Below, in pieces: positions 439 to 20,880 of a stretch of 21,653 bases of DNA. The translations under genes and the position numbers were made by a program. Each line of letters starts with the position of its first letter. The stretch's first letter is position 1. The stretch covers positions 1-21,653 of the forward strand of contig JAGVZG010000013.1 of NCBI GenBank assembly GCA_018302765.1, read 5' to 3'. Below the pieces are notes generated by a model. It was not told the origin of the DNA. It made no database searches and was given only the letters and a program-made list of their open reading frames with translations. The DNA is from Candidatus Woesearchaeota archaeon (lineage in GTDB: Archaea; Nanobdellota; Nanobdellia; SCGC-AAA011-G17; GW2011-AR18).

Positions 439-1893
439 ATGGGTAAAAGAGGAAATAGTTTTATTGTTTTTTTGTTTTTAATTATTTTATTTATTTTGTT
501 TTTTGTTTTAAGATCTATGAATTTTGTAGGAAATACAGGATATGCTGTTAACAATGGAGGCCTTACTGTCAATGATGTTTATTTTGTGAAAACTGATATT
601 TTGGAAGACAGTTCTTTTAGAATTGTAGAAAATGCAACTGAATTTTACAAAGGAGATGTTGTAGGGTGTTTGTTTTTTTATGACCTTACTGAAGGCTCTA
701 ATGCCACTCTTAGTATTGGTTTTTACTCTAAAGATAAAATTATAGATAATCCTGATGTTTTGTATTCAGATATTTTGAATATAGAAAGTGACTATGTTTT
801 TTACAATGAAAGTGCAGGCATAGCTCTTTTTGAGGCAAGCGAATATAAACCAGGTTCTTGGAAGTGTTTTGCTTTGTGGGATAGCTCTAATAAAATATCC
901 AATAAAATTGATATGAAAAATAGAGCACCAATTCTAAAAGAACCTGTTCCTCCCATTTCTTTAGACATTGAAGGAAATTATTTAGGTGAAGGTAAGCTTG
1001 ACTTGAATAATTTTTTTTCAGATATTGAAGATGATAAGCTTATTTATGGGGCAGTAGGCCAGATTAACATACAGATTTTTGTTGATGAAAATGGAATTGT
1101 TGCTTTTAGTAATCCTAGCAAATGGGAAGGCTATGAATCTATTTTGTTCAGGGCTTATGATGGAGAACTAGGTACTTTTAGTAATAATATTACCATTAAG
1201 GTTGGTTCTGGAACAAACCAGTCTGGTCAAGCAGGCTGTGTTACTGTTTGGGATTGTAATTGGGAAACTTGCGTTAATGGAAAACAAAATTGTGTTTATT
1301 TTGATAGAAATAATTGCGGCAGTGATATTGATAAACCTGCAAATTTAGTAAGAGAGTGTTCTTTGTCGCAGCCTCAACAATCACCTAATGATGCGTCTAA
1401 AGTTATAGGTGGAGACTTGAAGAATTTTAATGCTAATGTTCCTGTAACTATAGATACAAAAAGAGTTTTATTAATATTGGGATTAGTTGTTTTAATTCTT
1501 TTAATAGTTAGTCTTGGAGGCTACTTGTTATTTTCTTCCAGGAAAAAATCTTCTCAAACAATTAAGGAAAGCAAAAAAGAACCTGAGAATGTGAGTTCTG
1601 GCCAGGTGAAAGTTGAGCAGGCTAAAACTGAGGGAAGTATTGGAAACATTAGCGAACTAAGGAATTATATAATTAGTGCTTTAAAGCAAGGACAGAAAGA
1701 AGCTAAGATAATAATAGATTTGCAAGCTTCTGGATGGAAGAAAGAGGACGTAGATTCAGGCTTGAACTATGCCAAACTTAAAATTTTTGTTGAGAAAAAA
1801 TTAGCTCAAGGAATTAACAAGGATGAAATAATTTCCACTTTGAAAAAAAAGGGCTGGAAGGACGAAATGATTAAATCTATTTTTGAAAAGTAA
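439..1893 (+). CDS. Membrane-anchored surface protein: N-terminal TM, cadherin/Ig-like domain, small Cys-rich TSP1-like domain, TM, duplicated cytoplasmic helical motif
   Basis: TM at aa ~8-25. NRAP...LDLNNFFSDIEDDKLIY...FRAYDG is cadherin/Ig-like (919-1203). CVTVWDCNWETCVNGKQNC...DRNNCG...KP...C is the Cys-rich part (1237-1359). Second TM VLLILGLVVLILLIVSLGGYLLF. Two LxxxI/V...G...I...L...GW repeats at the C-terminus. Confidence 0.8.
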   Translation: MGKRGNSFIVFLFLIILFILFFVLRSMNFVGNTGYAVNNGGLTVNDVYFVKTDILEDSSFRIVENATEFYKGDVVGCLFFYDLTEGSNATLSIGFYSKDKIIDNPDVLYSDILNIESDYVFYNESAGIALFEASEYKPGSWKCFALWDSSNKISNKIDMKNRAPILKEPVPPISLDIEGNYLGEGKLDLNNFFSDIEDDKLIYGAVGQINIQIFVDENGIVAFSNPSKWEGYESILFRAYDGELGTFSNNITIKVGSGTNQSGQAGCVTVWDCNWETCVNGKQNCVYFDRNNCGSDIDKPANLVRECSLSQPQQSPNDASKVIGGDLKNFNANVPVTIDTKRVLLILGLVVLILLIVSLGGYLLFSSRKKSSQTIKESKKEPENVSSGQVKVEQAKTEGSIGNISELRNYIISALKQGQKEAKIIIDLQASGWKKEDVDSGLNYAKLKIFVEKKLAQGINKDEIISTLKKKGWKDEMIKSIFEK

Positions 1894-4717: not shown

Positions 4718-5350
4718 ATGAAAATTACTTTTGCTAATTTTTTAATTGTTTTGATTTTGTCTTTACTGCTTTGTTTTACTATTATTTCTTTTAGTTTTTT
4801 AATTGTTGTTTATGACCTTGATTTTTACAGGTATGAATTTACTAAAAGTGGCGTTTATGATAATTTTAGTAATGGAACTTATGTAGACTCTATTGCTAGT
4901 AATTTAATTGGTTATTTTTATGGCAAAACTGATTTATTCAATATTTACACTGAAAAGGAAGCAGTACACCTCCATGACGTCAAGAACATTATTAATTATT
5001 TTACAATATTGTTTTTCTTATCTTTTTTTATATTGGTTATTGTTCTTTCATATTTACATCATTTAAATTATAAGTACTTTGGGTTTATTTTTATGTTTAG
5101 TTTTATTTTCTTGGCTTTTATTTTATTTTTATTGATTGCTTCTTTATTTTTAGACTTTGAATATATATTTGATGGATTTCATAGATTATTTTTTACCGGA
5201 GATTCTTGGATTTTAAGCAATGATTCCCTTCTTATTGGCTTGTTTTCAGAAGGTTTCTTTTTTGATGCATTAGTTAGGGCATTATTTTATGCCTTTATTT
5301 TTAGCTTTTTAGTATTTTGTTTAACTTTCCGATTTAGAAAAATAATTTAA
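4718..5350 (+). CDS. DUF1461/TIGR01906-family membrane protein, similar to lipoprotein intramolecular transacylase Lit
   Basis: 4-TM layout with EAVHLHDVK (H84, D87), FDGFHRLFF (H155), DSWIL and LLIGLFSEGFF motifs characteristic of this family. Confidence 0.75.
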   Translation: MKITFANFLIVLILSLLLCFTIISFSFLIVVYDLDFYRYEFTKSGVYDNFSNGTYVDSIASNLIGYFYGKTDLFNIYTEKEAVHLHDVKNIINYFTILFFLSFFILVIVLSYLHHLNYKYFGFIFMFSFIFLAFILFLLIASLFLDFEYIFDGFHRLFFTGDSWILSNDSLLIGLFSEGFFFDALVRALFYAFIFSFLVFCLTFRFRKII

Positions 5351-5372
5351 ATATGAATTAAGCTTTATAATT

Positions 5373-5972
5373 ATGGGGTTTTTTGAGAAATTAGCTGAAA
5401 ATAAATCTATTATATTATTTATTCTTATTTTAGATATTATTGGGGTATTTTTTTCTGCTTATACTTATCGTTATGATATTTTGATTAATATAAGTATAGG
5501 GGATTTTTTCATAATTCCTTTTTTCATGGTCAGCTTTTGGTTATTTTTCCTTTCTGCTTTGTGTTGTTTTTACTTGTATAAAAGTAGGAAATTGCCTTCA
5601 TTTTTAGGAGGTTTGTCTTTTATTTATTGTTTTGTTTATGGTTTTGGTTCTGTATTGTTTTATCCTTTGTTTATGTTTTTTGTAAGAGGTGTAACTCTCT
5701 ATCATGTTTGGAATATTTTTGCACATGGATTTGTTGGCTTACAATCTTTGATTTTTATTAGACATGTAAATAAGTTTAAGATTTTTCACTATTTGAGTTT
5801 TGGATTTATTTTTCTATTCAAGGATATTTTGGATTTATTTTACAGTGGGTTTTTGTATTTTGTTAATTTTATTTTTCCAGATTTTTTGAAAACTATAATA
5901 ATATTTATAATTGGCGCTTTGCAGATTGTTGCTTTTTACTTGTTATTTGTGTCTGACAAAAGACTTAAATAA
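5373..5972 (+). CDS. Divergent DUF1405 (YpjA/LhaT)-like polytopic membrane protein
   Basis: About 6 TM. The motif order ILDIIG, YG, AHG..GLQ (H118, Q124), FH, KDILD (D151, D154) parallels YpjA as I recall it, but the usual PDSP motif is replaced by PFFM. Confidence 0.55.
   Translation: MGFFEKLAENKSIILFILILDIIGVFFSAYTYRYDILINISIGDFFIIPFFMVSFWLFFLSALCCFYLYKSRKLPSFLGGLSFIYCFVYGFGSVLFYPLFMFFVRGVTLYHVWNIFAHGFVGLQSLIFIRHVNKFKIFHYLSFGFIFLFKDILDLFYSGFLYFVNFIFPDFLKTIIIFIIGALQIVAFYLLFVSDKRLK
5964..5971 (+). promoter_or_regulatory. Candidate TATA box for module 1 (overlaps the end of the upstream gene)
   Basis: GACAAAAGA-CTTAAATA, 21 nt before the ATG at 5993. Confidence 0.4.
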
Positions 5973-5992
5973 CTTCAAATTTTATTATGGAT

Positions 5993-6751
5993 ATGCAAAA
6001 AAGAGGCCAAGTTAGTGTATTTGTTATTATTGGTTTAGTTATTATTGCTGCCATGATTTTTGTTTTTTTTCTCTTTAGAAGTTTTCAGGAAAAAGCAAGA
6101 GAAATTACAAACCCACAGGAATATTTAAAGTCACAGATACAAGACGTAAAGAAGGCTGTAGTTAAGTGCATAGGAGATGAATCTGAAGGTGCTTTAACTA
6201 AACTTTCAATGCAAGGAGGACATCTTAATCCAGTTAAATATATAAATTATTATGACAGTAAGGTTACTTTTTTATGTTATAAAGTTAAAGATGATGAACC
6301 CTGCTATAATTTTATGTTTACTAGGATGGAAATTGAGGATGAGTTGGGGCCTTTATTGAAAAAGAATATCAAAAGTTGCGTTGATTCAAGTTTAAGTCCT
6401 TTTAGAAAAAAAGATTATGTTCTTAGCACTGGAGATTATGGTTTTGATTTTGTTTTTAGTGATGAAGCACTTCTTGTTATTTTAGATTATCCAGTAACTT
6501 TAACCAAAAGTAAAATTATTGAGATACAAAATGAATTTAGCAGTAATGTCAAGACTGATTTTTGGAAGACTGCAGTTTTGGCTTCTTCTATAGTTAATTC
6601 TGAAGCTAGGGGTGAAATTGTTGATTTGGTTAAGATAAGTCCTAATAATTTGTACTTTGAAGTAGGAAGAAGAGTAATTACAGGTGGTAATTTATATATG
6701 ATAATTCCTAGAAATGGAGGCCAGACTTTTTATTTTGCTGTGGAAACATGA
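5993..6751 (+). CDS. Module 1 small protein: class III signal peptide (type IV pilin-like) protein
   Basis: MQKRG/QVSVFVIIGLVII leader, 4 conserved Cys, QGG motif, C-terminal FYFAVE. The ORF track starts at 5987; 5993 fits the TATA spacing. ATGA overlap with the next gene. Confidence 0.85.
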   Translation: MQKRGQVSVFVIIGLVIIAAMIFVFFLFRSFQEKAREITNPQEYLKSQIQDVKKAVVKCIGDESEGALTKLSMQGGHLNPVKYINYYDSKVTFLCYKVKDDEPCYNFMFTRMEIEDELGPLLKKNIKSCVDSSLSPFRKKDYVLSTGDYGFDFVFSDEALLVILDYPVTLTKSKIIEIQNEFSSNVKTDFWKTAVLASSIVNSEARGEIVDLVKISPNNLYFEVGRRVITGGNLYMIIPRNGGQTFYFAVET

Positions 6752-9700
6752 AAGCTAGAAGTTTATTTTTCCTTTTAATTGTTGTAGCTAGTTTTTTTTT
6801 AGTTGCAATCATTGTTAATGCTGAAGGCTGTTGTTTAAAGACTAAAGGTGACAACGGACAATATTGCGTTAGCGAAAGAGATGGAGCTAGTGCAGCCAAT
6901 TGCGAAAGTAGTATGTGGTTCTCAGAAGATTGTGATGCAAAGGACCAGTGCAAGAACAAAGGTTGTTGCTATGTTGATAATGACTGCAGAGATGATCAAC
7001 TTGAGATAAAATGCATTGGCAGTGCAGGTGAGTTTAGCAGTGGCAACTGCGAAAGTACACCAAGGTGCAAGAAACTTTGCTGTCAGGCAAGCGATGAGGA
7101 GTCTTCTGGTTATTTTTATACTACTCAGAGTGGGTGCGATGCTATGCAGGGTGTTGAAAAATCAGACGTAACTGATGAGGCTTCTTGCGAAAATCTTAAC
7201 AGAGGTCTTGATGCTCAGAGAGGATGCTGTGTTTTAGATAGTGGTGAATGCAAAAGAATGTTGAATGATGAATGCAATAGAGTAGGAAGTCAGCCTCCTT
7301 ATGAGGGGTTTTTTTGTAGAGATGTTGGTGCTTGCGATCCTAAGTGTGAGGGAAAATATCGTATTGGGCCAGGTAATCCAAGAATAAGCGAAGAGTCTAA
7401 TAAAATTTATTGGTATGACAGCTGTGGAAATCAAGAGGACTTAGTTGATGAGACTGATCCAATTGAAGCATTTAAGCATGCAGGATTTGATGAGCCATTC
7501 AATGGCGATTGTGATGCAGATCCTTCTTCTGCAGTAGTTTTGACAAATGAGGGACAGTTTACTTGTGCTAATTTAGTTTGCAACAATATTTGGGATAACC
7601 CAAGAACAGATGAGAATTACAATGGAAATTTGCGTGATGATAATTTTTTTGATTTTGCTGAAAGAAGAAGTTTTAGGTATAACGGAGAGAGCTGGTGCGA
7701 ATATGTACAGGCAAAGGTTGGTTTTGGCTTAGACCTTCCTGGAACTAGACATTATTTGCATTACTGTGAAAGGGGCAATGAAAGAGTTGATGAGAAGGCG
7801 TCTGATGGAGGCAGAGATTACGTATGTGCTGAGAGTTTTTTGGATAAGACAAAAAGAAAAACAGATGGAACTCAAGTTACTTATACAATGACCAATGCTA
7901 CTTGGATTAAGAATAATGCTGCTGATTGTTTTAAATGTAATGACAAAGCTGTTGTTGATTCAGGACATGTTTTAGATTGCTGCAGGCAAAAACAAACCTG
8001 TTCTTATGTATTTAGAAAAGCAATAAAGCCAGACACTGTAATTATAAATATTAATGAGCAGGAGTACAATAACATTAAAGATTCTGTAGGCAAAGCAAAT
8101 AGGTTTTTGAAATTAAGATACAAGATTAGTGATTCTGTTATCAAGGAAGAAAATTTATTGTCCGCTGTTAGAATACCTGGCTCTTGCAGTGGGGGCTGTA
8201 ATTTAGAAATTATCAATCCACCAGTTGGTGAATATGAAGTATTTGTTTATGGAAGAGGCTGTGACTCTCTTGGTTTGATTTGTGAAACTAGAGAAGTGAC
8301 TTTAGGGAAGAGAACTTTTAAGCCTGCTGATTTACAAGGTGTTTGTCTGCCTTTAATTGCTCCTACAGGAAATGAGTTCTGCAGTTCCTTTGCTGACTAT
8401 GGTTTTTCCAAGGTTGACACTTCAGTGAGTTATAATTATTATTATGATTTACCTTATGTTGGTTTTGGTTTTGGTGATGAGTGCCAGAATACTTCTGGTT
8501 GCATAGACCTTCTTTATAAAAAGACAAACAATTTAAATAATTTAAAATCAAGCGAAGGTTCTTTAATTATGTTAGATAATATTTATTCCTTGTGCAGTGC
8601 TTTTGGCGATTGCGGCTACAAGCCGAATCTTTTGGGAATTATGGGAAACAATATTTCCAGCAGTTTGAATGCATTTAGCTTTTGCCCTCGCGGCTCTGAC
8701 AGTGGCTGTGTTTATTTTACTTATTCAGAGGTAATTAAGCTTCAAGGAAAGAAATTTTTAGGCATTTTGAATGGCACGCCATCTAGACCTGAAATTAAAA
8801 CAGATATAAATCCTTTATTTTTTGGACTGCCTTTATCTTTATTTAGAAGGAAGAAAAATAAAAAAATGTTTATTGCTTTTTTAATATTACTTCATTTAAT
8901 TCTTATTGCTTGTGAGGAAGGCGGAAGATATTTGCAAGGACATCCAGATTTACAGTCTTTTGATTGCAATAAATTGATACCTGCTTCTGGAGCTGCTGAT
9001 TGTGGAAAGTGCAATGCAAACTGGAGCTCTGGTGGAATTCTTCCAGATATTAATTTAACAACAGCTGACGGCAAATTAGTTTATCAGTGCACTCCTGAAC
9101 TTTGTTATAGTTTAGGAGTTAAAGATCAGCAGTGCGAGTTTGTTCCTAATAAAGAAGCAGGAGGACTTTGCATTACTAAGGAAAGCTTTAACATTCCTAG
9201 GATAAGTTTTGTTGGTGCAAATTATTCTTGCAGTAGTTTAAATAGAGGTGGTTGTTCAGCTAGCAGTTATCATATAGAAAATAGTGAAAGTCCTTATTTA
9301 TTTATTGATGGCAACTTAGAGGAAAATATACCTTTAACAATTAGTTTTAAAACTATAAACGTTAAGGAGGGTTCTGGAAATTCAGGAATGCCTGCTTTTT
9401 GTTATTATAGTAAAAATAAAGATACAGGCGATGATCGCAGATTAAAAAAATTAAATAGTATCGATTCTGAAGATGGTGGAAATCTTAAGATAGAGCACAA
9501 TTTTGATATAGCTGGAAAGCCGCTTGGACAGTATAATTATTTTATTCAATGCGAAGATCAGGCTGGAGATATTACTACTGTTGGTAATATTAGATTTAGC
9601 GTTGCAAGAGGACCTGATATTGGTGCGCCAAGAATAGCAAGAATAGAGCCTTCTGATGGAACTATTTACGTCAAGAATGGAATTTATGATAAAGATGTTA

Positions 9701-10587
9701 CTATTTTTGTAAACGGAAGAGTTAACTTGTGCAGATGGGACAATAAGAGTGTAAGATTTGAAGAAATGGGTGTTGTTACTAATGTGTGCAGAGGATGCAG
9801 TAATGATGGAAGAGATATAATTGATAGATATGTTGGACCTAATTCTTTCAGTTGTAGAGTAGATTCAGAGTCTGGCTTAAGTGTCTGCCCTGCTAATCTT
9901 AAATATATAAATTTAGGATCAAATAAGTTTTGGTTTGCATGCAATGGCACAAATGGAAAAATTTCTGAAATATCTCCAGAAAACGGCTATGAAATTATAA
10001 GTACTAGTTCGTTAAACATCACTGATGTAAGTTGTGAGCATAGTTTAGGAAACGGTTGTGACAAAATTTATGATAATTATTTTAATTTTTTAATAAAGAC
10101 TTCAGGAGGAGCAGAAAGTGGAAGGGCTCAATGCAGGTGGGCGCCTGATGGCTATGACTATGATTCTTTCACTGAGCCTGGCTTTGATTATAGAGGCTTA
10201 ATAACCGTATCTAAGTATGGCATTGTACACAAGAAGCTTAATTACGCCCATGATACAGGAGTTGTGAAAATGAATTTCTTGTGCAATGATGTTGCTGGAA
10301 ATATTGCCCAGAAAAGTTTAACAATAAGTATAGAAAGAGACGTGAACCCACCTAAAATAACTAAATCTTATAGATACGGTAATGAACTATACGTTCAAAC
10401 GAATGAAATTAGTAATTGTTATTATATATCAAGCACATTTGGCAGTTTTGATAATTCAACACAATTTACTACGTCTGACGGTTTGGAACATCATACAAGT
10501 ATTGAAACTAATTTTTATAGAATTAGATGTGAAGACAAGTTTAATAATAAAAAAGATATGGACATTTATATTAGCAAGTTACAGTAA
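6748..10587 (+). CDS. Module 1 giant Cys-rich exported protein (1279 aa) with internal hydrophobic segment and C-terminal Ig-like repeats
   Basis: Sec-type leader ending VNA/EG; four CC-repeats; YDSCGN, NGESWCEY, LPGTRHY and GDCG core motifs; four C-x-(Y/W)...C-x-D-x-x-G-N type domains; many N-X-S/T sequons. Confidence 0.85.
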   Translation: MKARSLFFLLIVVASFFLVAIIVNAEGCCLKTKGDNGQYCVSERDGASAANCESSMWFSEDCDAKDQCKNKGCCYVDNDCRDDQLEIKCIGSAGEFSSGNCESTPRCKKLCCQASDEESSGYFYTTQSGCDAMQGVEKSDVTDEASCENLNRGLDAQRGCCVLDSGECKRMLNDECNRVGSQPPYEGFFCRDVGACDPKCEGKYRIGPGNPRISEESNKIYWYDSCGNQEDLVDETDPIEAFKHAGFDEPFNGDCDADPSSAVVLTNEGQFTCANLVCNNIWDNPRTDENYNGNLRDDNFFDFAERRSFRYNGESWCEYVQAKVGFGLDLPGTRHYLHYCERGNERVDEKASDGGRDYVCAESFLDKTKRKTDGTQVTYTMTNATWIKNNAADCFKCNDKAVVDSGHVLDCCRQKQTCSYVFRKAIKPDTVIININEQEYNNIKDSVGKANRFLKLRYKISDSVIKEENLLSAVRIPGSCSGGCNLEIINPPVGEYEVFVYGRGCDSLGLICETREVTLGKRTFKPADLQGVCLPLIAPTGNEFCSSFADYGFSKVDTSVSYNYYYDLPYVGFGFGDECQNTSGCIDLLYKKTNNLNNLKSSEGSLIMLDNIYSLCSAFGDCGYKPNLLGIMGNNISSSLNAFSFCPRGSDSGCVYFTYSEVIKLQGKKFLGILNGTPSRPEIKTDINPLFFGLPLSLFRRKKNKKMFIAFLILLHLILIACEEGGRYLQGHPDLQSFDCNKLIPASGAADCGKCNANWSSGGILPDINLTTADGKLVYQCTPELCYSLGVKDQQCEFVPNKEAGGLCITKESFNIPRISFVGANYSCSSLNRGGCSASSYHIENSESPYLFIDGNLEENIPLTISFKTINVKEGSGNSGMPAFCYYSKNKDTGDDRRLKKLNSIDSEDGGNLKIEHNFDIAGKPLGQYNYFIQCEDQAGDITTVGNIRFSVARGPDIGAPRIARIEPSDGTIYVKNGIYDKDVTIFVNGRVNLCRWDNKSVRFEEMGVVTNVCRGCSNDGRDIIDRYVGPNSFSCRVDSESGLSVCPANLKYINLGSNKFWFACNGTNGKISEISPENGYEIISTSSLNITDVSCEHSLGNGCDKIYDNYFNFLIKTSGGAESGRAQCRWAPDGYDYDSFTEPGFDYRGLITVSKYGIVHKKLNYAHDTGVVKMNFLCNDVAGNIAQKSLTISIERDVNPPKITKSYRYGNELYVQTNEISNCYYISSTFGSFDNSTQFTTSDGLEHHTSIETNFYRIRCEDKFNNKKDMDIYISKLQ
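10565..10572 (+). promoter_or_regulatory. Candidate TATA box for module 2, embedded in the last codons of the module 1 giant gene
   Basis: GGACA-TTTATATT, 21 nt before the ATG at 10594. Confidence 0.45.
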
Positions 10588-10593
10588 TTGATT

Positions 10594-11394
10594 ATGAAAA
10601 AAAGAGGACAGCTTTCAGTTTTTATTGTGGTAGGGATTGTTTTGATAGTTGTTTTTATGCTGTTTTTTTTCTTCAGGGATAAAATTACCAAGACATTAAG
10701 AGAGGAACCAATAAACCCACAGGAATATTTGAATCAGCAACTTGATGACATAAAGATGGAAATTGGAAGGTGCGTTAATCAAGAGACAAGCAAAGCGTCT
10801 AAATTATTAATGGAAAACGGAGGAGTATTTAATAGAAAATTCGGATTTATTCGTTATATTAATATTAGTTATCCTGTATTATGCAGAGAAATTAATGGCA
10901 CTGGATCTTGCTTAGCTGAACCGATATTGATTTCTAATTTACAAGGTAAACTTGGTACTTATTTGCCAGAAAAAATAAATAAATGTATTAATCTTGAAAG
11001 CTTTAAGAATAAGGACTATAGTCTTGTTTTCAGAGTTGGTAATTTAACAGCAGTTATTCTTGATGAAATTATAGTTGTTGATTTAGGTTTTTATGTTAAG
11101 TTAAGTAAAGGCCCTTATATTGCTGAAAAAGATAGCTTTGTTTATAATTTAAATATTCCTTTAGGTGCTTTTTCTAAACTTGCTAATAGTCTTTTGCAAG
11201 TTAAGGCTGGAGGCACTGAGATAAATTCATTATTTTATGAATTATTATCTTTTAATAAGTATTTAATACAAGTCAGGAAGCCTTATCCAGATGAAGTTTA
11301 TGATATTACTTTAACAAATAATGATAAATATCATTTTTATTTTGCTATTGAAGGCATTGGAAGATATGAAAGGGTAGAGGGAAGACTTAGATGA
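10594..11394 (+). CDS. Module 2 small protein: class III signal peptide (type IV pilin-like) protein
   Basis: MKKRG/QLSVFIVVGIVL leader, NPQEYL shared with module 1, 4 Cys, KPYPD shared with module 3, FYFAIE. The ORF track start at 10588 is TTG; ATG 10594 is preferred. Confidence 0.85.
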   Translation: MKKRGQLSVFIVVGIVLIVVFMLFFFFRDKITKTLREEPINPQEYLNQQLDDIKMEIGRCVNQETSKASKLLMENGGVFNRKFGFIRYINISYPVLCREINGTGSCLAEPILISNLQGKLGTYLPEKINKCINLESFKNKDYSLVFRVGNLTAVILDEIIVVDLGFYVKLSKGPYIAEKDSFVYNLNIPLGAFSKLANSLLQVKAGGTEINSLFYELLSFNKYLIQVRKPYPDEVYDITLTNNDKYHFYFAIEGIGRYERVEGRLR

Positions 11395-14300
11395 AAAAGA
11401 TGATTGTTTTTGAGACTATTTTTGAGATTTTTTTAGTTATAAGTCTAATATTTGTTTTTGCTTTATTCAATGCTGCTCAGGTTTATGCAGATGATCAGCA
11501 AGAAAAAAGAGTATGCTGCCAGAAAGCTGTGATTGATGGAGAAACAAGATACTGTCAGTATACTGAGAAGAGGAATTGTGATGCGAACTCTGGAGTATTT
11601 GACAATAGGTGTGAAGACGTGAGTGTTTGCAGGCCTGTGTGCTGCAACGTTAATAATTTAGGTTATTTAGCAAGCGGAGGGCAGGGATGTTTTAAGAGTG
11701 TTTCTATGAATTCTTGTGTTAATGAATTACATGGACAAGTTATACCTGATGCTCAATGCAATGTGCCTGAGTGCAAGAAAGGTTGCTGCACTGTTGGTAG
11801 TCAGTGCACTTTAACTACTTCTGACAACTGTCAGAATCTGACTAGTTCTTATTCAAATTTAGAGTTGAAATATAATCCAGATGTTAGTGATGAAATTGGA
11901 TGTTTGAGTTCATGCAGATCTCAAAATCGTGGCTGTTGCATTACTAAAGGCGAGAGTGGAATAAGTGCTTCGTCTTGCAGAATGATTACTTTTGGTGAAT
12001 GCAATTCTGCAAACGGTCAATTTTATGAAGGCACTTCTTGCGTTGATCTTCCTGCTGATGTTCGTGACTGCGACAAATGTAAATACAGTAATGATGAGAA
12101 GAAATTAGGATGCGTTCCTGATATTGATAGTGGAGAAGATGTTTATGAATATGACAAATGTGGAAATCCTGTTAAGGTTGCTAGTTTAGGATCAGACGGC
12201 AGAAACGGTGACTGTGATTATTCTAAAGGAAATATATGCAGGGAACAGAATGGAAGTGCTTTTTGCAGAAATTTAAATTGCAATTCAGATGAGATCTGGG
12301 ACAATCCTTTTGTTGATGAAAATGGAGATTGCTGTATTAGTAGAAATAAAGATGGAATTTGTGTAAATATGAAAGGTTCAGATGATGTATGCTGGACAAA
12401 TGATAAAGAGTTTCATGGTGACAATAAATTTAGAGTAAATGGAGAGAGCTGGTGCGAGTATGATGCAGATGCAGGACCGTCTAGAGATCTGCCTGGCACT
12501 AGACATTATGTTCACTCTTGCTATGAAGGAGAAGAAATAGTCCAGGAGTGCAAAGATTACAGAGAAGAATATTGCGTACAATTTATTGGTGGAGAGATCG
12601 ATCAGGCTTCTTGTGTTAAAAATAAGGCAGCAAAGGAGTCTTGCGCTAGTTGCGATAATGACCAACGATGCTGTGAGACAAAGTTTTCTGGAAGTTGTGT
12701 ATGGGTTCCTGAAAATCCTATTAATAATCAAAGAGTAGTTAGTGACGCTAGGAAGATATATGAAAATAAATGTAAATTTGACAAGGAACATGATAATAAT
12801 ACTGTTTGTTCTGCTCCACCAGAAGTTCCTAATGTTACTAGTAGTGGTACTAATGGCAAATGTGTTCCTTTAGTTCCTCCAGGCACTAAAGACAGAGAAG
12901 ATTTTTGTAAGGCTGCTAGCAAAAGTTTTGATACTTTATGGGTTACTTATGGATGGGGGAGTGATTATCATTGTGCTGGTGGCTGCGGGACATATATGAA
13001 AAAATTTGGTTATAATTATAATAATTATTGTAGAGCTTTAGGCGACTGTGGCGCTGATTTTAATTTAGCTGGTGAATGGAGCGATCAAGGTTTTGCTAGG
13101 AAGTGTGATCTTGTCGGTTTATCTTTCGATGATATAAAAGGCGACCAGTCTTCTGGCTATGTTACTGAAGGTCTTAGCGATGAAGAAGCTACAGACTTAG
13201 ATAATATTTATTATAAATATAAATTTGATGATTCTTATAAAGGTCAGCAGGAAAAACTTGTTGGGCTTGTTACAAACTGTAATAAGCCTTTAGAAATCCC
13301 TGATACTTACAGAGGGAAAATAGAATCATTTGTTGACTTCTCTAAATACAAAGGAAGTTTATTTTACAATCTAGAAAATTTTGGTTCTATAGATTTAGGT
13401 GCATTTACTAGAGGCAAAGACGCTATGAAATGGATAGGTATTATTGCTTCTGTTATATTTGTTGTTGGTGTAGCTCTTAAGGCTACTTTAATTGCTTTAA
13501 CATTTCTGGGTAAAGTATTGATCGCCTTTTTGAGTAACCCTTATACTATTGTCATCGCTCTTGTGCTTGCTGTTATATTAATAGTAACTTCAACTACAAT
13601 GGACTCTAAAGAGCAGAAAGTTAATGTTCAATGTAAACCTTGGACTCCACCTATTGGAAATAAAAATTGCAATTTATGTTATGAGTCAGGTTATCGTGAG
13701 TATATAGATTTTAATAATCATGATGCAGATCCGAAGACTGGTTACGTTAAGGAATTTGTAGACTTGACTGCTGGAGGCTTACATCATTGCACTCCTTATC
13801 TTTGCTGGAGTCTAGGACAGGGTTGCAAGTTTGTTGAAACCAATGATGGAAATAAATGTGTAGCTCAGGAATGTACTTCTAATGCACCTAAGAGAAAACC
13901 ATTGTCAAAACTTCAAGAATTAAACCTTGCAAGCTGCAGAGATAGTGATGACTCTGTTACAGGCAAAATAATTCCTTGTACTGCAAGCAATGTTGTCACA
14001 GATATTGGCCGTGGTGGTTATGAAATTAAATACGTTAAAGAAAATACTGATATTACTGTTGGTGTAGAAACTGACAAATTAGCTGTTTGCAAATGGGACT
14101 GGGAAAGGAAATCTGACTATGAGGAATTAACTAAATATTTTGACCAGAGTGCAGCATCAACAACACACACTGTTACTTTGGAAGCTGACAGAGATTTATT
14201 ACCAGGTGCACAAAAAACAATTAATGTAATTTGTAAAGATACTTGTGGCAATCCAGGAGGAAGTTATCCTTCTTATACAATAAATATTAAAGTTTCTAAA

Positions 14301-15176
14301 ATGAGAGACTTGGGAGCTCCTGCGTTTGTAAGTATAGATCCTCCTGATAATTCTCCTGTTAAGTCAGATTTAATAGCCAATGTGACTGACGTATTAATTA
14401 AATTGAGTGAGCCAGCAACATGCAGGTGGGGCAGAACAAATGATCCTTATGAAATTATGAAAGGGATTGCTCCTAATTGTGATACACCTTCTAGAGGATG
14501 TACAATACATTTAACAGGAATACAAGAAGGAGTAAATACTTTTTTTATAAGGTGCAAAGATAAATCAAATAATACAAATATAGATGCCTTGCCAAACAAT
14601 AATGGCTATAGATTGATAAGAAGCAAGCCATTACAAATAACAAATATCAGATGCTTAAACAGTTTTGACGACAAATGCGGAACAATTTATGACAGTAATT
14701 TTACATTAGAGGTGACTACTGCTGACGGAGGCTATAATGGTAAATCAATTTGTTTTGCTTTGAGTAGCAATGGCTTGGAATATGAATTTTTTAAAACAGA
14801 TTCCAGTATTCATACACAGGTTGTAGGTCCTAGAAGCACAGGAAGCTACACTGAAAGAATTAAGTGCAAGGACTCAGTTGGAAATGAAGATGTTAAAACT
14901 GTTAATTTTACCATGATAAGGGATGAAGCACCTCCCAAATTACTGAAATTGAGTTTTGAAACAGGAAATTTGAATTTGCTGACTGATGAGATAGCAGTTT
15001 GCAAGTATGGAGACAACAGCAGTTTAATATTTAGTGAGATGATACAGTTTGATAGTACTGCAAATATAAAACATACAACTTCTGTTGGAGCAAGAAATTA
15101 TGTTCATGTTAAATGCGTTGACAGGTTTAATTACGTTGCAAGTTTTGATGTTTACAGGAGCGGAAAGTCAGGTTAA
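11391..15176 (+). CDS. Module 2 giant Cys-rich exported protein (1261 aa)
   Basis: Leader ending VYA/DD; four CC-repeats; YDKCGN, NGESWCEY, LPGTRHY, GDCG and CKPWTPP motifs; long hydrophobic stretch at 13431-13598; Ig-like C-terminal repeats. Confidence 0.85.
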   Translation: MKKMIVFETIFEIFLVISLIFVFALFNAAQVYADDQQEKRVCCQKAVIDGETRYCQYTEKRNCDANSGVFDNRCEDVSVCRPVCCNVNNLGYLASGGQGCFKSVSMNSCVNELHGQVIPDAQCNVPECKKGCCTVGSQCTLTTSDNCQNLTSSYSNLELKYNPDVSDEIGCLSSCRSQNRGCCITKGESGISASSCRMITFGECNSANGQFYEGTSCVDLPADVRDCDKCKYSNDEKKLGCVPDIDSGEDVYEYDKCGNPVKVASLGSDGRNGDCDYSKGNICREQNGSAFCRNLNCNSDEIWDNPFVDENGDCCISRNKDGICVNMKGSDDVCWTNDKEFHGDNKFRVNGESWCEYDADAGPSRDLPGTRHYVHSCYEGEEIVQECKDYREEYCVQFIGGEIDQASCVKNKAAKESCASCDNDQRCCETKFSGSCVWVPENPINNQRVVSDARKIYENKCKFDKEHDNNTVCSAPPEVPNVTSSGTNGKCVPLVPPGTKDREDFCKAASKSFDTLWVTYGWGSDYHCAGGCGTYMKKFGYNYNNYCRALGDCGADFNLAGEWSDQGFARKCDLVGLSFDDIKGDQSSGYVTEGLSDEEATDLDNIYYKYKFDDSYKGQQEKLVGLVTNCNKPLEIPDTYRGKIESFVDFSKYKGSLFYNLENFGSIDLGAFTRGKDAMKWIGIIASVIFVVGVALKATLIALTFLGKVLIAFLSNPYTIVIALVLAVILIVTSTTMDSKEQKVNVQCKPWTPPIGNKNCNLCYESGYREYIDFNNHDADPKTGYVKEFVDLTAGGLHHCTPYLCWSLGQGCKFVETNDGNKCVAQECTSNAPKRKPLSKLQELNLASCRDSDDSVTGKIIPCTASNVVTDIGRGGYEIKYVKENTDITVGVETDKLAVCKWDWERKSDYEELTKYFDQSAASTTHTVTLEADRDLLPGAQKTINVICKDTCGNPGGSYPSYTINIKVSKMRDLGAPAFVSIDPPDNSPVKSDLIANVTDVLIKLSEPATCRWGRTNDPYEIMKGIAPNCDTPSRGCTIHLTGIQEGVNTFFIRCKDKSNNTNIDALPNNNGYRLIRSKPLQITNIRCLNSFDDKCGTIYDSNFTLEVTTADGGYNGKSICFALSSNGLEYEFFKTDSSIHTQVVGPRSTGSYTERIKCKDSVGNEDVKTVNFTMIRDEAPPKLLKLSFETGNLNLLTDEIAVCKYGDNSSLIFSEMIQFDSTANIKHTTSVGARNYVHVKCVDRFNYVASFDVYRSGKSG

Positions 15177-15205
15177 TTGCAAATTTTCTAAAATAAACAA
15201 AAACA

Positions 15206-15213
15206 TTTATATA
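15206..15213 (+). promoter_or_regulatory. TATA box with BRE-like element for module 3
   Basis: CAAAAACA-TTTATATA, 21 nt before the ATG at 15235. Confidence 0.6.
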
Positions 15214-15234
15214 GAATAAATAATGATTAATGCT

Positions 15235-15993
15235 ATGCGTAAAAGAGGTCAGGCTACAGTATTTGCTATAATTGGAATTGTTATTCTTATAATAGTTGCA
15301 TTGTTTTTTTTCTTGAGAAATGAATTTGGTTTTTTTGTTGCACCGACAAGTTTTTTGAGCGACAAAGCTAAACCTATTGAAGATAACTTAAAGGGATGCA
15401 TAAACCAAGCTGTTTCTAATAATTTAAATTATTTTGGAAAACAAGGCGGGGATTTTGGTCCTACACGTTATGTTCTTTATGAAAGCAATAATGTCAAATA
15501 TTATTGCACCAATATTCCCAATGATGAAAAATGCCTGAATGTTATGCCTAGTTTGGATGAAATGATTGCTGCTCTGAATAGTAAAATACAAGATGATGTT
15601 AATGATTGCGTGGATAAAAGTTTAGTTGAGAGTGGCTTTGGATATAAAATAGAAGCAGGAAAAATAACAATAAATACTTTAGCTTCTGGACCAAGTTTGA
15701 TTGTTAAGGCGCATTATAATGTAAAAATTTTTAAGGATGAAAACAAATTTAGTGTCAGAGATATTACATTAAGTTATGATGCACCTCTTGAAGATATTTA
15801 TTCTGTTGCTGTTGATATAGTAAATGCTGAAGCAAGAGTTGGCTTTTTTGAGCAACTATTATATATGCTGAATAAAAAAGGGCAATTTATAATTAATTTA
15901 GATAAGCCATATCCTGATAAGATTTATAAAATTCATAAGAAAAATAGTAATTTTGAGTTTTGGTTAGCTATTGAGGGCGAGAGAAATATATGA
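15235..15993 (+). CDS. Module 3 small protein: class III signal peptide (type IV pilin-like) protein
   Basis: MRKRG/QATVFAIIGIVIL leader, 4 Cys, QGG, KPYPD, FWLAIE. The ORF track start is 15223; 15235 fits the TATA spacing. Confidence 0.85.
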   Translation: MRKRGQATVFAIIGIVILIIVALFFFLRNEFGFFVAPTSFLSDKAKPIEDNLKGCINQAVSNNLNYFGKQGGDFGPTRYVLYESNNVKYYCTNIPNDEKCLNVMPSLDEMIAALNSKIQDDVNDCVDKSLVESGFGYKIEAGKITINTLASGPSLIVKAHYNVKIFKDENKFSVRDITLSYDAPLEDIYSVAVDIVNAEARVGFFEQLLYMLNKKGQFIINLDKPYPDKIYKIHKKNSNFEFWLAIEGERNI

Positions 15994-18900
15994 AAATTAG
16001 AGTTAAGAGATTTTTAGCTTTGGCACAGATTTTATTAGTTATTAGTTTGATGTTTGTTTTAGGTTTTACTTTTAGTTCAGCTAGTGTTTCTGCTGATGAG
16101 GAACAGGTTTGCTGTGAGAAAGATAATGACGGGAATTATTGCAATTATGTTCCTTCTAGTAAGTGCACTGGTGCCGGAGTTTTAAAAGCTTCAACTAGTT
16201 GTGACCAAACTAGTTTTTGCAAAGCTGGATGTTGTGCTGGAGTAAATGGTTTTTGTTATAGCAATTATGCAAAGGCTTTATGCGAGAAGGGATATAGTGG
16301 AAGCTATAGCAATGATAAAAACTGCGATTCTGTTGCTGAATGCAAACTGGGTTGCTGTATTATAGGAACTCAAGCTGCTTATTTAACTAGAAATAGATGC
16401 ATACAAGAAACAGGCAAATTTCCTGATTTAGAAGTTGATTTCAGAGAGAGCGTTAATACTGAACAAGATTGTTTGAACTTAGCCAGAAATACTGAGAAAG
16501 GGTGCTGTGTTACTTCAGACAGAAAATGTAAATACGATGCAAAATCTGAATGCAGTGTTCAGGATGTAGTAAATGGAACTGGTTTTTATAAAGATACTTA
16601 TTGCAGTAGCTTGACTAACTCATGCGATTGTGCTCCACATAAAGATGGAGATCCCAGAGCAACTACTTGTTTAGCTAATGATGATAGAGTATTTTGGAAG
16701 GATAGTTGTGGAAATCCTGAAGGTGTAGTTGAAGGGATAAATTTGAAGAGTTATGATAAAGCTGCAGTTTTATCTGATGGTAAATGTGATTTTAATAAAG
16801 GAACTTTATGCGGAGATTCTAATAAAGACGGTATAAATGTTTGTGAAAGTCTTGATTGCGAAGGAGGAACTGGAGTTGCAAGCAATAATAAATTATCTTT
16901 GCACATGGATAATTATGTTTCTAAAGATGGGACACGTGGCACACCTCTTGACGTAATTAATGAAGATGGATTACTAAACGGAGAGAGCTGGTGTGAGTTT
17001 GATAGTTCTGACCAACAACAGATTAACAGGATTGATTTTTTAAGTACAGCTGGTCGTGGCAGTAAAGATCCTGTTGGCAGCAGATACTATAGACATTTAT
17101 GTATTAATGGTCAGGAATTAGTTGAGCCTTGCAAGGATTTTAGGGAAGAGTATTGCTATTTTAATACTATTAATGTTGGCAGTAATTCTGGTAAATCATA
17201 CACCGAGTCTAGATGCATTAGCAATCAGTGGAAACCTTGCGTAAATGAGTGCAATACTGCTAATCCTCAGACGATGGATAGATTTACTTACACAGAGGCT
17301 TTGAAAAAAGACCAGCAATGCTGTTTGAGTTCTAAAAGAGATTGTTTTTGGAATAGCAATAAGTGCGTTCCTGCTGTAAGTCCTGGTTTTAAGTTTTGGG
17401 AAGGAGAAGGAGCTGAGATTTGTGCTAAGGCAAATACGCAGTGCGCTGCAACTTTTAGGTGCGGTGGATGGAATAGAATTTTTGGATGCGGTGAAGAAGG
17501 TACTAAGGCTGCTGGTAGCGTCGGAGGCATTGTTGCTGGAGCTGCTGCTGGAGGCTATACTGCATTAACTTTAGGTGCAACTGCCGCAGCTGCAGCAGGA
17601 CCTGTTGCTATTGCAGTTGTCGGAGCAGCATTACTCATAGGCCTTACTTCAGGACTTCAAGGAGGATGGCAGATAATTAGTGGCGGTGAATGTTTTAGCC
17701 AGGATTATTTGCAGGCAGCAAATAATTTGTGCAGAGCTGTGGGAGATTGTGGTGCTGATTATAATTACTTAACTAGTTATGCTGATAGAGATATAGATTC
17801 TAACTTTACTTTGGGAACTACAGGGTTTACAAATACCAAAAATGTAGAGGGAGAAATTGCTGAATATGCAATTAAAGAAAGAGATGGAAAATTACAAGAT
17901 ACAAAATCAGTAAGTGATAGAGGAAATGTTGAATTTACGTTTAAAGATGGAATTCCTGGCGTCTTGACTGATCCAGATTGGAAGAAGGGAGAAATATTTT
18001 ATAAATTCAATGTTAAAGGCAGAGAATTAGGAAATATGTTTGTCAGAGCTTTATTTACTGGCAATGAGGTAAAAGAGCAGGGTTGGTTATACTCGGCAGC
18101 TTCACTTAGTGCAGCTACAGCTGTTGCTGGGGGTGTTGTTGGAAGTATTGCTTGGGGTGTTTCTGGTGGCTTAGCTGCTGGAGTTACTGGGGCTTCATTA
18201 GGATTGTCTGCTTCACCTTTAGGTTACTTAGTTACTAAAGGATTAGAATTTATACCTACGCAATATACAAAAAACCTTGGACTGGCTGCTGGCAGAAACG
18301 CTTTTGAGTCTGCTGCCAAAAGTCAATTTGAAACAGCTTTGCCTTCCATCAAGACTGGGGCTTTACGTCCGGCTGTTGAATCATCATTAAAGGAGCAACT
18401 TGGCAAGGGCGTAAGTACAAAGTTAAGCGACGCCGAAATATTGAAGCTTGCAAAAGGTGAAGAAATTGCTGGAAAGATTGGAAAAGAGGTTGCTGGAAAA
18501 GTTAGTAAAGGTGCAGGTGAACAATTTGCAAAAGATCAAGCTGCCAGATCTTTTTCAGGCTATTTAACAGGCGTAAGTGCAGCTTTATGGTTATACACTG
18601 CTTATCAATTAGCAGACGTTTTCTTTGAGGATGTAAGGCAAGTTACTATATCTACAACGTGCCAGCCATGGCAGCCTCCTTCTTATAAAATTACAGAAGA
18701 AACTGATATATGCGAAAGATGCAATTCCCAATATAATGCAGATGATGAAGGCTATGTAAATAAAGATAAAACCCCAAAAGATGTAAGGGCTTTCAAAAAA
18801 TGTTCTGAATATAGATGCAAGAGCTTGGGACCAAGCTGTGAATTAATAAATAAAGGCACCACTGAAGAGTCTTGCGTATCAATAAACAAGTTAGATGTTA

Positions 18901-20294
18901 GCTCTCCAAAAATAGAACCTTGGATAGAAGGATTTACTTTAGGAATAAAAGAAAGTGACATAGTAAAGAATTCCAATGGTTTTATAATAAAAAAACAAAA
19001 AGAGATTCCAATTTATACACCATTTAATATCGCATTAAGGACTGACGAACCTAGTCAGTGCAAGATGAGCATGGAACATAGCAAAAGATATAATGAAATG
19101 GACAATGTATTTGGAAATAATATATTTAAGTATTTCCATATTAATACAATGTTTTATCCTGCTAATAGAAATACAACTGCAAGTGGCATATTATTAACTG
19201 GCGGTGGGCATTATAAATTATATTTAAGGTGCATTGATGCTGTAGGAAATGCGAATGAAAATGATTACGTTGTAGAATTTGATGTTAGCAGCGAACCTGA
19301 CTTAACTGCGCCTACAATATTTGGAAGTAGTTTATCTCCACCCGTACCTAATGATTTAGTTAACCAGACATTATTAGCCAAAGAAGTTTATTTGATGAGT
19401 GGCGCAAATTATACAGACATTACATTATTTGTTAATGAACCAGCTGAGTGTAGATATAGTTATATCCCTCTTGACTTTGGTTTTATGAATGAAACTAATT
19501 TATGCAAAACACAATTTAATCCCCCTTATTATGAGTGCAAATTTATTAGGGGTGTGCAAAATTTAGCTGGAATAGGACCTGCTCCTAGCGGATTTGTTTC
19601 GAAGCCAGGCTTGGCGCAATTTGTTTACTTTAAGTGCAGAGATCATCCTGAAGCAAGCTATAATGGAACAAGAAATTTCAATAAAGATGCTTACACTGTT
19701 GTATTAAGAGGAAGTGAAACACTTCATATAAGTAGATCAGGACCTTCTGGTACGATAAAAACAAGTAGTGCAATTGTTGATGTTACATTAGATGTTCAGA
19801 CAAGCGGCGGTGCTTTGTTAAATGGGAAATCAATATGCAAGTATACAACTGAAGAAATAAATAAAGAAAATTTAGCAGCTATGACTGAATTTTTAAATAC
19901 AGATTCAAGTTATCATACACAGCCTTGGAAGCCAAGTAGCGGAGCACAGAGGTTTTTTGTGGGGTGCTATGATCAAGCGGGCAACAGAGCATTTGCTAGT
20001 ATAAGTTTTGCTGTTGAAAAGGATGTTACTCCACCAATAATTGCTAAAGTTTACAGAGATCAAAGTTTCCAGCCACCACAATTTACTGTGGAAATAAATG
20101 AGCCTGGTGAATGTAAAGATAGTGTTGAAAGTATCTTTAATTATGATGCAGAAGGCAATTTAATGAATGCTGTCGGAAGCAGTGGAAGAGTATTTACAAG
20201 CACAGTTCCAAATTCAAATGTTTATTACATTGTATGTAGAGATCAGTTCAATAATACAATGGCTCCAGCAATTGTACAGATAGCACAGGTTTAA
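15990..20294 (+). CDS. Module 3 giant Cys-rich exported protein (1434 aa) with Gly/Ala-rich glycine-zipper segments
   Basis: Leader ending VSA/DE; four CC-repeats; WKDSCGN, NGESWCEF, PVGSRYY, GDCG and CQPWQPP motifs; hydrophobic segments at 17508-17669, 18081-18233 and 18552-18626; Ig-like C-terminal repeats. Confidence 0.85.
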   Translation: MKIRVKRFLALAQILLVISLMFVLGFTFSSASVSADEEQVCCEKDNDGNYCNYVPSSKCTGAGVLKASTSCDQTSFCKAGCCAGVNGFCYSNYAKALCEKGYSGSYSNDKNCDSVAECKLGCCIIGTQAAYLTRNRCIQETGKFPDLEVDFRESVNTEQDCLNLARNTEKGCCVTSDRKCKYDAKSECSVQDVVNGTGFYKDTYCSSLTNSCDCAPHKDGDPRATTCLANDDRVFWKDSCGNPEGVVEGINLKSYDKAAVLSDGKCDFNKGTLCGDSNKDGINVCESLDCEGGTGVASNNKLSLHMDNYVSKDGTRGTPLDVINEDGLLNGESWCEFDSSDQQQINRIDFLSTAGRGSKDPVGSRYYRHLCINGQELVEPCKDFREEYCYFNTINVGSNSGKSYTESRCISNQWKPCVNECNTANPQTMDRFTYTEALKKDQQCCLSSKRDCFWNSNKCVPAVSPGFKFWEGEGAEICAKANTQCAATFRCGGWNRIFGCGEEGTKAAGSVGGIVAGAAAGGYTALTLGATAAAAAGPVAIAVVGAALLIGLTSGLQGGWQIISGGECFSQDYLQAANNLCRAVGDCGADYNYLTSYADRDIDSNFTLGTTGFTNTKNVEGEIAEYAIKERDGKLQDTKSVSDRGNVEFTFKDGIPGVLTDPDWKKGEIFYKFNVKGRELGNMFVRALFTGNEVKEQGWLYSAASLSAATAVAGGVVGSIAWGVSGGLAAGVTGASLGLSASPLGYLVTKGLEFIPTQYTKNLGLAAGRNAFESAAKSQFETALPSIKTGALRPAVESSLKEQLGKGVSTKLSDAEILKLAKGEEIAGKIGKEVAGKVSKGAGEQFAKDQAARSFSGYLTGVSAALWLYTAYQLADVFFEDVRQVTISTTCQPWQPPSYKITEETDICERCNSQYNADDEGYVNKDKTPKDVRAFKKCSEYRCKSLGPSCELINKGTTEESCVSINKLDVSSPKIEPWIEGFTLGIKESDIVKNSNGFIIKKQKEIPIYTPFNIALRTDEPSQCKMSMEHSKRYNEMDNVFGNNIFKYFHINTMFYPANRNTTASGILLTGGGHYKLYLRCIDAVGNANENDYVVEFDVSSEPDLTAPTIFGSSLSPPVPNDLVNQTLLAKEVYLMSGANYTDITLFVNEPAECRYSYIPLDFGFMNETNLCKTQFNPPYYECKFIRGVQNLAGIGPAPSGFVSKPGLAQFVYFKCRDHPEASYNGTRNFNKDAYTVVLRGSETLHISRSGPSGTIKTSSAIVDVTLDVQTSGGALLNGKSICKYTTEEINKENLAAMTEFLNTDSSYHTQPWKPSSGAQRFFVGCYDQAGNRAFASISFAVEKDVTPPIIAKVYRDQSFQPPQFTVEINEPGECKDSVESIFNYDAEGNLMNAVGSSGRVFTSTVPNSNVYYIVCRDQFNNTMAPAIVQIAQV

Positions 20295-20632
20295 TTTAAC
20301 GGCTCTATTATTATTTTATTTCCTATTTTACTTAGATTTATTTCAGTGCTTTCCTTTAAATTTAGTTGTTTTTCTATATCGTAGGGTATTCTAAGAACAA
20401 GACCCCTTCCACTTTTTGATAGCGTTCTTGTCAACTTTAATGGTTCAGGCCATATAGCTAATTTTTTTGAAGTATCTATAAATTTTTTAGTTTCTTCTTC
20501 ATAAGGAAACTCTTCATTGCAGTTGCTACATCTATGGCCCTTAGCTACAAAAATATAACATTCTAATTCCATTATTATATTATCTACTTCTTCTAATATT
20601 CCTTTTTCACATACTAAACATTTTCTTTTCAT
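20291..20632 (-). CDS. Putative antitoxin/regulator: YgiT/MqsA-type zinc finger fused to an AbrB/MazE-type DNA-binding domain
   Basis: CLVC...CSNCNEEF at the N-terminus; RTLSKSGRGLVLRIPYDIEKQLNLKESTEINL...KIIIEP is an AbrB-like swapped hairpin. Confidence 0.75.
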   Translation of the reverse strand: MKRKCLVCEKGILEEVDNIIMELECYIFVAKGHRCSNCNEEFPYEEETKKFIDTSKKLAIWPEPLKLTRTLSKSGRGLVLRIPYDIEKQLNLKESTEINLSKIGNKIIIEPLN

Positions 20633-20880
20633 TTTCCTTCAGCTCCTGTAATTACAAATATTTCTTTATATTCTTCATCTACTACAAATATAATTTTTCT
20701 ACTTTTATTTTTGTTTTTTACATAAGATTCATATTTGTATTTACCTACTTTGTCTATTTTGTAATTATTTTCAAGCGATCTTCTTAAGTCTTCTTCATCC
20801 CATCCCCATTTTCTTATCCATCCTAAAATGAAATGCTTGCTTGGTCTTATTTTGTATTTTATAAATTCTAAATTTGACAT
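20629..20880 (-). CDS. Putative toxin, DUF4258-like (RelE/BrnT-type fold)
   Basis: 83 aa, basic; SKHF...W...DLRR.LE...RKIIFV...IFVIT pattern; 4-nt overlap with the downstream Zn-finger/AbrB gene, i.e. toxin-first TA arrangement. Confidence 0.6.
   Translation of the reverse strand: MSNLEFIKYKIRPSKHFILGWIRKWGWDEEDLRRSLENNYKIDKVGKYKYESYVKNKNKSRKIIFVVDEEYKEIFVITGAEGK

Follow-up and report, generated by a model that had tools for sequence, protein, structure and literature searches.

Three gene pairs downstream of PCNA

The DNA considered here is a complete 21.6-kb contig (JAGVZG010000013.1, 21,653 nucleotides, analysed over its whole length and called the window below) from the 1.02-Mb, low-GC genome of a Candidatus Woesearchaeota archaeon (assembly GCA_018302765.1). 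The Woesearchaeota are a DPANN lineage of archaea (Nanoarchaeota/Nanobdellota), and the source organism is probably host-dependent. On the plus strand of the window, the housekeeping genes for RpoL, signal peptidase, TFS, and PCNA are followed by three tandem pairs, S1/G1, S2/G2, and S3/G3 (Table 1). The small gene S of each pair encodes a protein of 254–268 amino acids with a pilin-type N-terminus, and the giant gene G encodes a presumably exported, cysteine-rich protein of 1261–1434 amino acids. At all three S/G junctions, the stop and start codons overlap by 4 bp in the sequence ATGA. A preliminary description of this DNA, made from the letters alone, had reported three proteins of about 255 residues with a KRG/Q motif, four cysteines, a GG, and an F..A.E end, each coupled by ATGA to a giant, and the open reading frames (ORFs), the junctions, and the alignment of the paralogs bear this out.

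The small protein

The S paralogs are 28–30% identical and share an invariant K-R-G-Q, four cysteines, the GG, and the C-terminal F..A.E. In the three S proteins and 19 orthologs, the start reads M-x-[KR]-G/Q-[VL]-[STA]-x-F (the slash marks the expected cleavage site), followed by a hydrophobic stretch of about 23 residues. Across 22 S sequences from many genera, the K, the G, Q(+1), F(+5), G(+9), and the four cysteines are invariant. A short basic leader that ends in Gly or Ala and precedes some 20 uncharged hydrophobic residues is what defines the archaeal class III signal, and, judged by its sequence, the N-terminus of S is of this (prepilin) pattern. The ORF of S2 opens with a TTG at 10588, immediately past the stop codon of G1, and the orthologs favour the ATG at 10594 (MKKRGQ), which is most likely the true start.

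Searches of Pfam, NCBIfam, and PDB sequences place S in no meaningful family, and the Pfam model of class III signals (Class_IIIsignal/DUF361, PF04021) does not match it even at E values up to 1. A Foldseek search with the S model gives no match, and a wide structural search returns middling, generic alpha/beta matches only. ESM Atlas searches in this analysis yield solely Nanobdellota clusters without names.

The giant protein

The G paralogs are 24–31% identical, with dozens of cysteines invariant, and carry Sec-type signal peptides that end in VNA, VYA, or VSA. The ordered scaffold ascribed to them in the preliminary description is present in full: all three have four CC repeats, [YF]x[YK]DxCGN, NGESWCE, [PV]G[TS]R[HY]Y, GDCG, CxxC, and CxSLG, in this order. 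The four Ig-like (immunoglobulin-like) domains claimed for the C-terminal part are likewise supported by the AlphaFold model of G2 and by Foldseek (E ~1e-11), and the results of searches with this model (Foldseek, VIA; PDB and a viral library) are filled by Ig/FN3 arrays. The protein ends with the last Ig-like domain, and neither hydropathy nor the G2 model gives any C-terminal hydrophobic segment or anchor. The three window giants have no Pfam or NCBIfam domain and no enzyme domain, and a profile of the core and N-terminal half has no Pfam or PDB sequence match. When 44 N-terminal halves are scanned for domains, the single match is a spurious one to coronavirus NSP4. A deep HMMER search gives 1883 representatives in the family, of which the best 150, those listed, are all clear members.

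The giants had also been called disulfide-rich. Their wealth of cysteines, 64–78 in each window giant, stands, but the disulfides can only be inferred because the whole genome has no match to VKOR or to a DsbA-type enzyme (Thioredoxin_4); an oxidative folding system of this type was rejected for the same reason.

Between the two conserved halves of G lies a central cassette that is free of cysteine and rich in Gly and Ala, with a median length of 193 residues and a maximum of 402. It is the least conserved part of G between orthologs (25–30% identity), is Cys-poor and of low confidence in the G2 model, and varies widely in the hydrophobic segments it contains. The idea of a constant, even helix count was considered and rejected, since crude hydropathy gives values from 0 to 8, and no general topology can therefore be claimed for the cassette. 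By the same crude count, 5 of 44 assessed giants have no hydrophobic segment in it at all. A natural break at the cassette divides the G of several lineages into two ORFs, one for the unanchored N-half and one for the C-half, and toxin–antitoxin genes sometimes lie between the two. The N-termini of the split C-halves were considered as pilin leaders and set aside, as they fit Sec signals with VSA/VSG cleavage equally well.

Table 1. Positions of the array genes and of the domains of G2 in the window, with S-less giants of other loci; leaders, signals, and domains are predicted, and a slash marks the expected cleavage site
Feature	Position	Strand	Description	Basis or remark
S1	5987..6751	+	254-residue class III (pilin-type) leader protein, MDMQKRG/QVSVF, then ~23-residue hydrophobic helix	ORF and translation; paralog and family alignment
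G1	6748..10587	+	1279-residue giant; Sec-type signal ..VNA/EG; 71 Cys; central RRKKNKK and hydrophobic helix; C-terminal Ig-like domains	
S2	10594..11394	+	266-residue class III leader protein, MKKRG/QLSVF	AlphaFold model m9bcf79690a41, pLDDT (predicted local distance difference test) 88.7
G2	11391..15176	+	1261-residue giant; 78 Cys	Residues 62-1261 modelled, m7bebad752517, pLDDT 79.8
G2 residues 42-230	11514..12080	+	Four CC-repeat modules, small hairpin-plus-helix units	CC at 42, 84, 132, 182; model pLDDT 70-89
G2 residues 237-555	12099..13055	+	Beta-rich conserved core: YEYDKCGN, NGESWCE, PGTRHY, GDCG	Module fused to S in 28 clusters
G2 residues 669-736	13395..13598	+	Two long hydrophobic helices in variable, Cys-poor central cassette	Hydropathy; model helices 608-634, 656-675
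G2 residues 738-861	13602..13973	+	CKPW...CxxC...CxSLG block domain	Invariant Cys, motif positions
G2 residues 866-1255	13986..15155	+	Four tandem Ig/FN3-like beta-sandwiches of one type, TDExAxCK...YIxCxDxxGN	
S3	15223..15993	+	256-residue class III leader protein, MINAMRKRG/QATVF	Orthologs in many genera
G3	15990..20294	+	1434-residue giant; cassette with Gly/Ala-rich hydrophobic inserts and K/A-rich linker	
P176	20989..21519	+	176-residue class III leader protein, MKKG/QLLSQPFF	Last gene of array
Orphan giants	L064:2424-5507, L065:6807-9959, L095:5881-9243, L085:1600-5127		Giants after PCNA without an S of their own	Just upstream of a normal S-G pair

Pairing, co-divergence, and fusion across genomes

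S is present in 60 and G in 59 of the 61 genomes of the order; beyond the order, the distribution of G is patchy. Adjacency was counted in 76 independent loci from other assemblies, where S lies directly upstream of 71 of 85 G genes and G directly downstream of 65 of 78 S genes, with a modal junction offset of -4, that is, the same 4-bp overlap. The exceptions are pairs parted by inserted cassettes and a subclass of giants of 1027–1175 residues that directly follow PCNA and lack an S. Because such split pairs and S-less giants exist, the pairing across genomes, for which a test of strictness had been suggested, is strong but not strict.

The two partners also diverge together. The mirror-tree correlation is 0.85 for cognate S and G, and exchanging partners inside the same locus lowers it to a mean of 0.48 and a maximum of 0.50. 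The paralog types of S and G are concordant in 16 of 16 clear cases. In addition, a complete S domain is naturally joined in one polypeptide to the G core, the CxxC block, and the Ig domains in 28 protein clusters. Sec signal, CC repeats, and cassette are all missing from these fusions, whose sole hydrophobic segment is the pilin-type N-terminal helix. Two further candidates were rejected as fusions, P0048 for an extra Ig-like insert and P0099 for extra CC repeats. No other line of evidence speaks as strongly as the fusions for joint action of S and G, with S as the anchor. The arrangement recurs in about 60 of the order's 61 genomes and at 76 independent loci, far beyond chance, and the S-G pair is a real and old unit.

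The operon and its neighbours

In 41 of the 76 loci, PCNA lies upstream of the array, which is thus a vertically inherited core locus. A mobile island was considered and rejected, as synteny with PCNA, TFS, and signal peptidase is conserved. Both S and G have a higher rate of evolution than the housekeeping genes beside them. In 28 of 42 assessable loci, the gene after the last G, often overlapping it, encodes a class III protein of about 170 residues (the P176 type). A second class III protein of about 320 residues (P320) often comes next; in the window it would fall past the end of the contig. The conserved operon form is [S-G]n-P176(-P320). P176 belongs to no meaningful family in searches of Pfam, NCBIfam, and PDB sequences; hhalign aligns it with S at a probability of 83% over the leader, the helix, and the first strand.

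In the window, P176 is displaced from G3 by a small antitoxin-like cassette on the opposite strand, made up of a MazE-like antitoxin ORF and an 83-residue ORF (20291-20880, minus strand). Homologous or other toxin–antitoxin cassettes lie between S and G or between the halves of G at L053, L059, L070, L091, and L094, and S-G arrays seem to be a favoured landing site for them.

A 484-residue protein encoded earlier in the window (439-1893) starts in class III fashion, MGKRG/NSFIVF, and has weak Ig/cadherin-like matches, a membrane helix late in the sequence, and a charged tail; in 10 loci, a homolog is found upstream of the array. The Lit-like and DUF1405 membrane genes directly upstream of S1 (4718-5972) adjoin the array in just 6 of the 76 loci; they were rejected as members, since they probably do not belong to the system.

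Prepilin peptidase and pilus machinery

The prepilin peptidase and pilus ATPase genes that the preliminary description had missed in the window lie elsewhere in the genome. There is a single A24 prepilin peptidase (C28:27008-27865; Peptidase_A24, 60 bits, above the cut-off), whose FlaK-like match is weak and falls far short of the equivalog cut-off. A full type IV pilus-like operon (C13:17403-25458, L122) comprises two platform genes, a FlaI-like ATPase, and six class III proteins, and one of the latter, of 514 residues, carries the Ig-like domain type of the giants. Another of the six is a 159-residue candidate major pilin (MKQKKAQAAMEF). A second ATPase/platform locus lies at C5.

None of the 76 array loci has a pilus machinery gene within its flanks, so there is no positive link between array and machinery. 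In archaea, it is common for pilin genes to lie apart from the gene for their ATPase (PMC3875500).

Other S-like genes and their large partners

The genome has two more distant S-like genes, and both are coupled to large proteins with Sec signals. One encodes a 678-residue protein starting MRKRG/QAAVF and overlaps by 4 bp with the gene for a 2257-residue giant that has a signal peptide and, at its end, two peptidoglycan-hydrolase domains, SLT lytic transglycosylase and Peptidase_M23 (the pair spans C26:27251-36057; L121:752-9558, minus strand). The other, of 262 residues, overlaps by 4 bp with the gene for a 742-residue protein that has a signal peptide and a DUF4846/CHAP-like region (pair at C22:48709-51722; L120:1710-4723); comparable pairs, whose partners have 600–680 residues, occur at L092, L099, and L102. 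In other genomes, the same S-like couplings involve giants that end in SLT or M15 (M15_4) domains. The long S-like proteins span 610–704 residues.

Giant murein hydrolases of Woesearchaeota and Pacearchaeota are already known as fam00969 and "Module 98" (PMC8204110; also PMC9723730). Neither paper mentions pili or pilins, and therefore no pilin-like partner is described there. The S superfamily looks like a general partner for large exoproteins. One could go further and consider it a pilin-type carrier that loads giant exoproteins, both the cysteine-rich G adhesins and the SLT/M23/M15 giants, onto a type IV pilus-like fibre or tip, forming a modular, contact-dependent apparatus to seize bacterial cells and breach their walls; this wider view is speculative and, on the present evidence, unlikely.

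A proposed working and its alternatives

With modest conviction, we lean towards a pilin-like surface operon that serves cell contact and in which S acts as the anchor or adaptor of its cognate G. It draws on the pairing of the genes and its conservation, their co-divergence, the fusions, the leader motif, the machinery genes elsewhere in the genome, and the Ig-like domains and hydrophobic helices of G. Further points in its favour are the class III genes at the end of the array, the Ig-like domain type shared with a class III protein of the C13 operon, and the coupling of all other S-like genes to large Sec-signal proteins. In such a scheme, G would be exported via Sec and S inserted by its N-terminal helix, and the A24 peptidase would cut the S leader after K/R-G. 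Coupled translation would yield S and G in equal amounts, and the globular alpha/beta body of S would bind the conserved core in the N-terminal half of G. The complex would then sit on the cell surface, exposing an Ig-like stalk and a cysteine-rich head by which it may adhere to other cells. The unlinked type IV pilus-like ATPase and platform may further lift S, P176, and their partners into a short fibre or tip complex. The earlier proposal, in which each S is a cognate adaptor displaying its giant on a pilus or the surface, is thus supported in part: pairing, co-divergence, and fusions favour the adaptor, but display on a pilus would be an extrapolation.

A doubtful but credible alternative is that S serves as a single-pass anchor or assembly chaperone and that S and G form a fixed coat resembling a cell wall or surface layer (S-layer), with no pilus machinery and no specific role in host contact. 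Arrays of Ig-like domains, as found in G, are typical of archaeal surface-layer proteins, the giants have membrane helices of their own (by hydropathy and in the G2 model), and a vertically inherited core locus next to PCNA that is never linked to pilus machinery would suit such a coat. Class III leaders also occur on non-pilin surface proteins of archaea (PMC4858521), which would make the leader compatible with it. However, the strictly conserved K/R-G-Q cleavage-type motif, together with the class III genes that close the operon, points to pilin-type processing, and G lacks the C-terminal anchor that a coat protein might be expected to have. The sibling S-like genes carry peptidoglycan-hydrolase giants, which are proteins of attack or contact rather than of the wall, and the pace at which S and G outrun their housekeeping neighbours also argues against a static layer.

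DPANN archaea are thought to exchange material with their hosts, and this presumed exchange, along with the composition, variable length, and low conservation of a cassette set between two conserved ectodomain-like halves, might suggest a membrane-engaging device, in which the cassette inserts into the membrane of a partner cell as a fusion peptide or pore former and opens a bridge while S holds the archaeal side. It is highly improbable, since the cassette is absent from the S-G fusions and its hydrophobic segment from the five giants mentioned above, so that it is dispensable for the core function, and since the G2 model shows two ordinary long helices there and sequence and structure searches find no similarity to any fusogen or pore former.

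Woesearchaeota and their relatives are abundant, uncultured, and thought to live on other cells. The S-G unit, at a fixed chromosomal place and nearly universal in the order, makes a strong candidate for the means by which they hold on to such cells. Its logic, a pilin-type anchor and a cognate giant acting as one unit, as in the fusions, is testable, and its proteins are well-defined targets for proteomics, antibody labelling, cryo-tomography, and structure prediction. The known giant murein hydrolases of these archaea are now tied to the same anchor family. Were the system carried on a pilus, it would represent the first counterpart in archaea of the pilus tip adhesins.

Comparison with known systems

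The literature searched holds no description of the S-G pairing. With two-partner secretion (TpsA/TpsB), the system has only the word "two-partner" in common, as neither a TPS domain nor an Omp85-type transporter was found, and archaea have no outer membrane. Archaeal S-layer proteins are marked by tandem Ig-like domains and by being the most abundant protein of the envelope; G has four Ig/FN3-like domains and no C-terminal membrane anchor or PGF-CTERM. The lytic transglycosylase giants of Woesearchaeota and Pacearchaeota are giant exported proteins of the same lineage with an S-like gene ahead and a 4-bp overlap; they belong to another giant family, with SLT, M23, or M15 domains, whereas the window giants have no enzyme domain.

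In modular type IV pilins, such as PilB and PilC of Streptococcus sanguinis, a pilin module is fused to an adhesive module. The 28 fusion clusters and the long S-like proteins have precisely this plan, with a pilin-type module at the N-terminus and a large additional one behind it. In the window, by contrast, the cargo is a separate, translationally coupled gene, and there is no sequence relation. PilY1 with its minor pilins in bacterial type IVa pili, like the GspK-GspI-GspJ tip, offers a parallel in organisation, since in [S-G]n-P176(-P320), too, a large Sec-signal protein is encoded amid minor-pilin-like genes. Yet neither the three window giants nor the 44 N-terminal halves have a PilY1, vWA, or beta-propeller domain, G usually has hydrophobic helices of its own, and its pairing is one-to-one, tandemly repeated, and archaeal.

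The Epd pili of Methanococcus maripaludis are built from several pilin-like genes in operons, some far larger than the major pilin and scattered from the ATPase, and in the substrates of their peptidase EppA the last leader residue is Gly, residue +1 is Gln, and residue +5 is Glu (PMC3875500). The S leader also ends in Gly with Gln at +1, and here too there are various pilin-like genes, some of them large, away from the ATPase. On the other hand, S has an invariant Phe at +5 instead of Glu and does not match PF04021, and no Epd pilin is paired with a giant cysteine-rich partner. The single A24 peptidase of the present genome seems to be a generic one. By the features tested, the system falls outside the Epd/DUF361, PilY1, S-layer, and two-partner secretion families; the two-gene S-G unit belongs to no described family and resembles the Epd/DUF361 and PilY1 systems in logic only.

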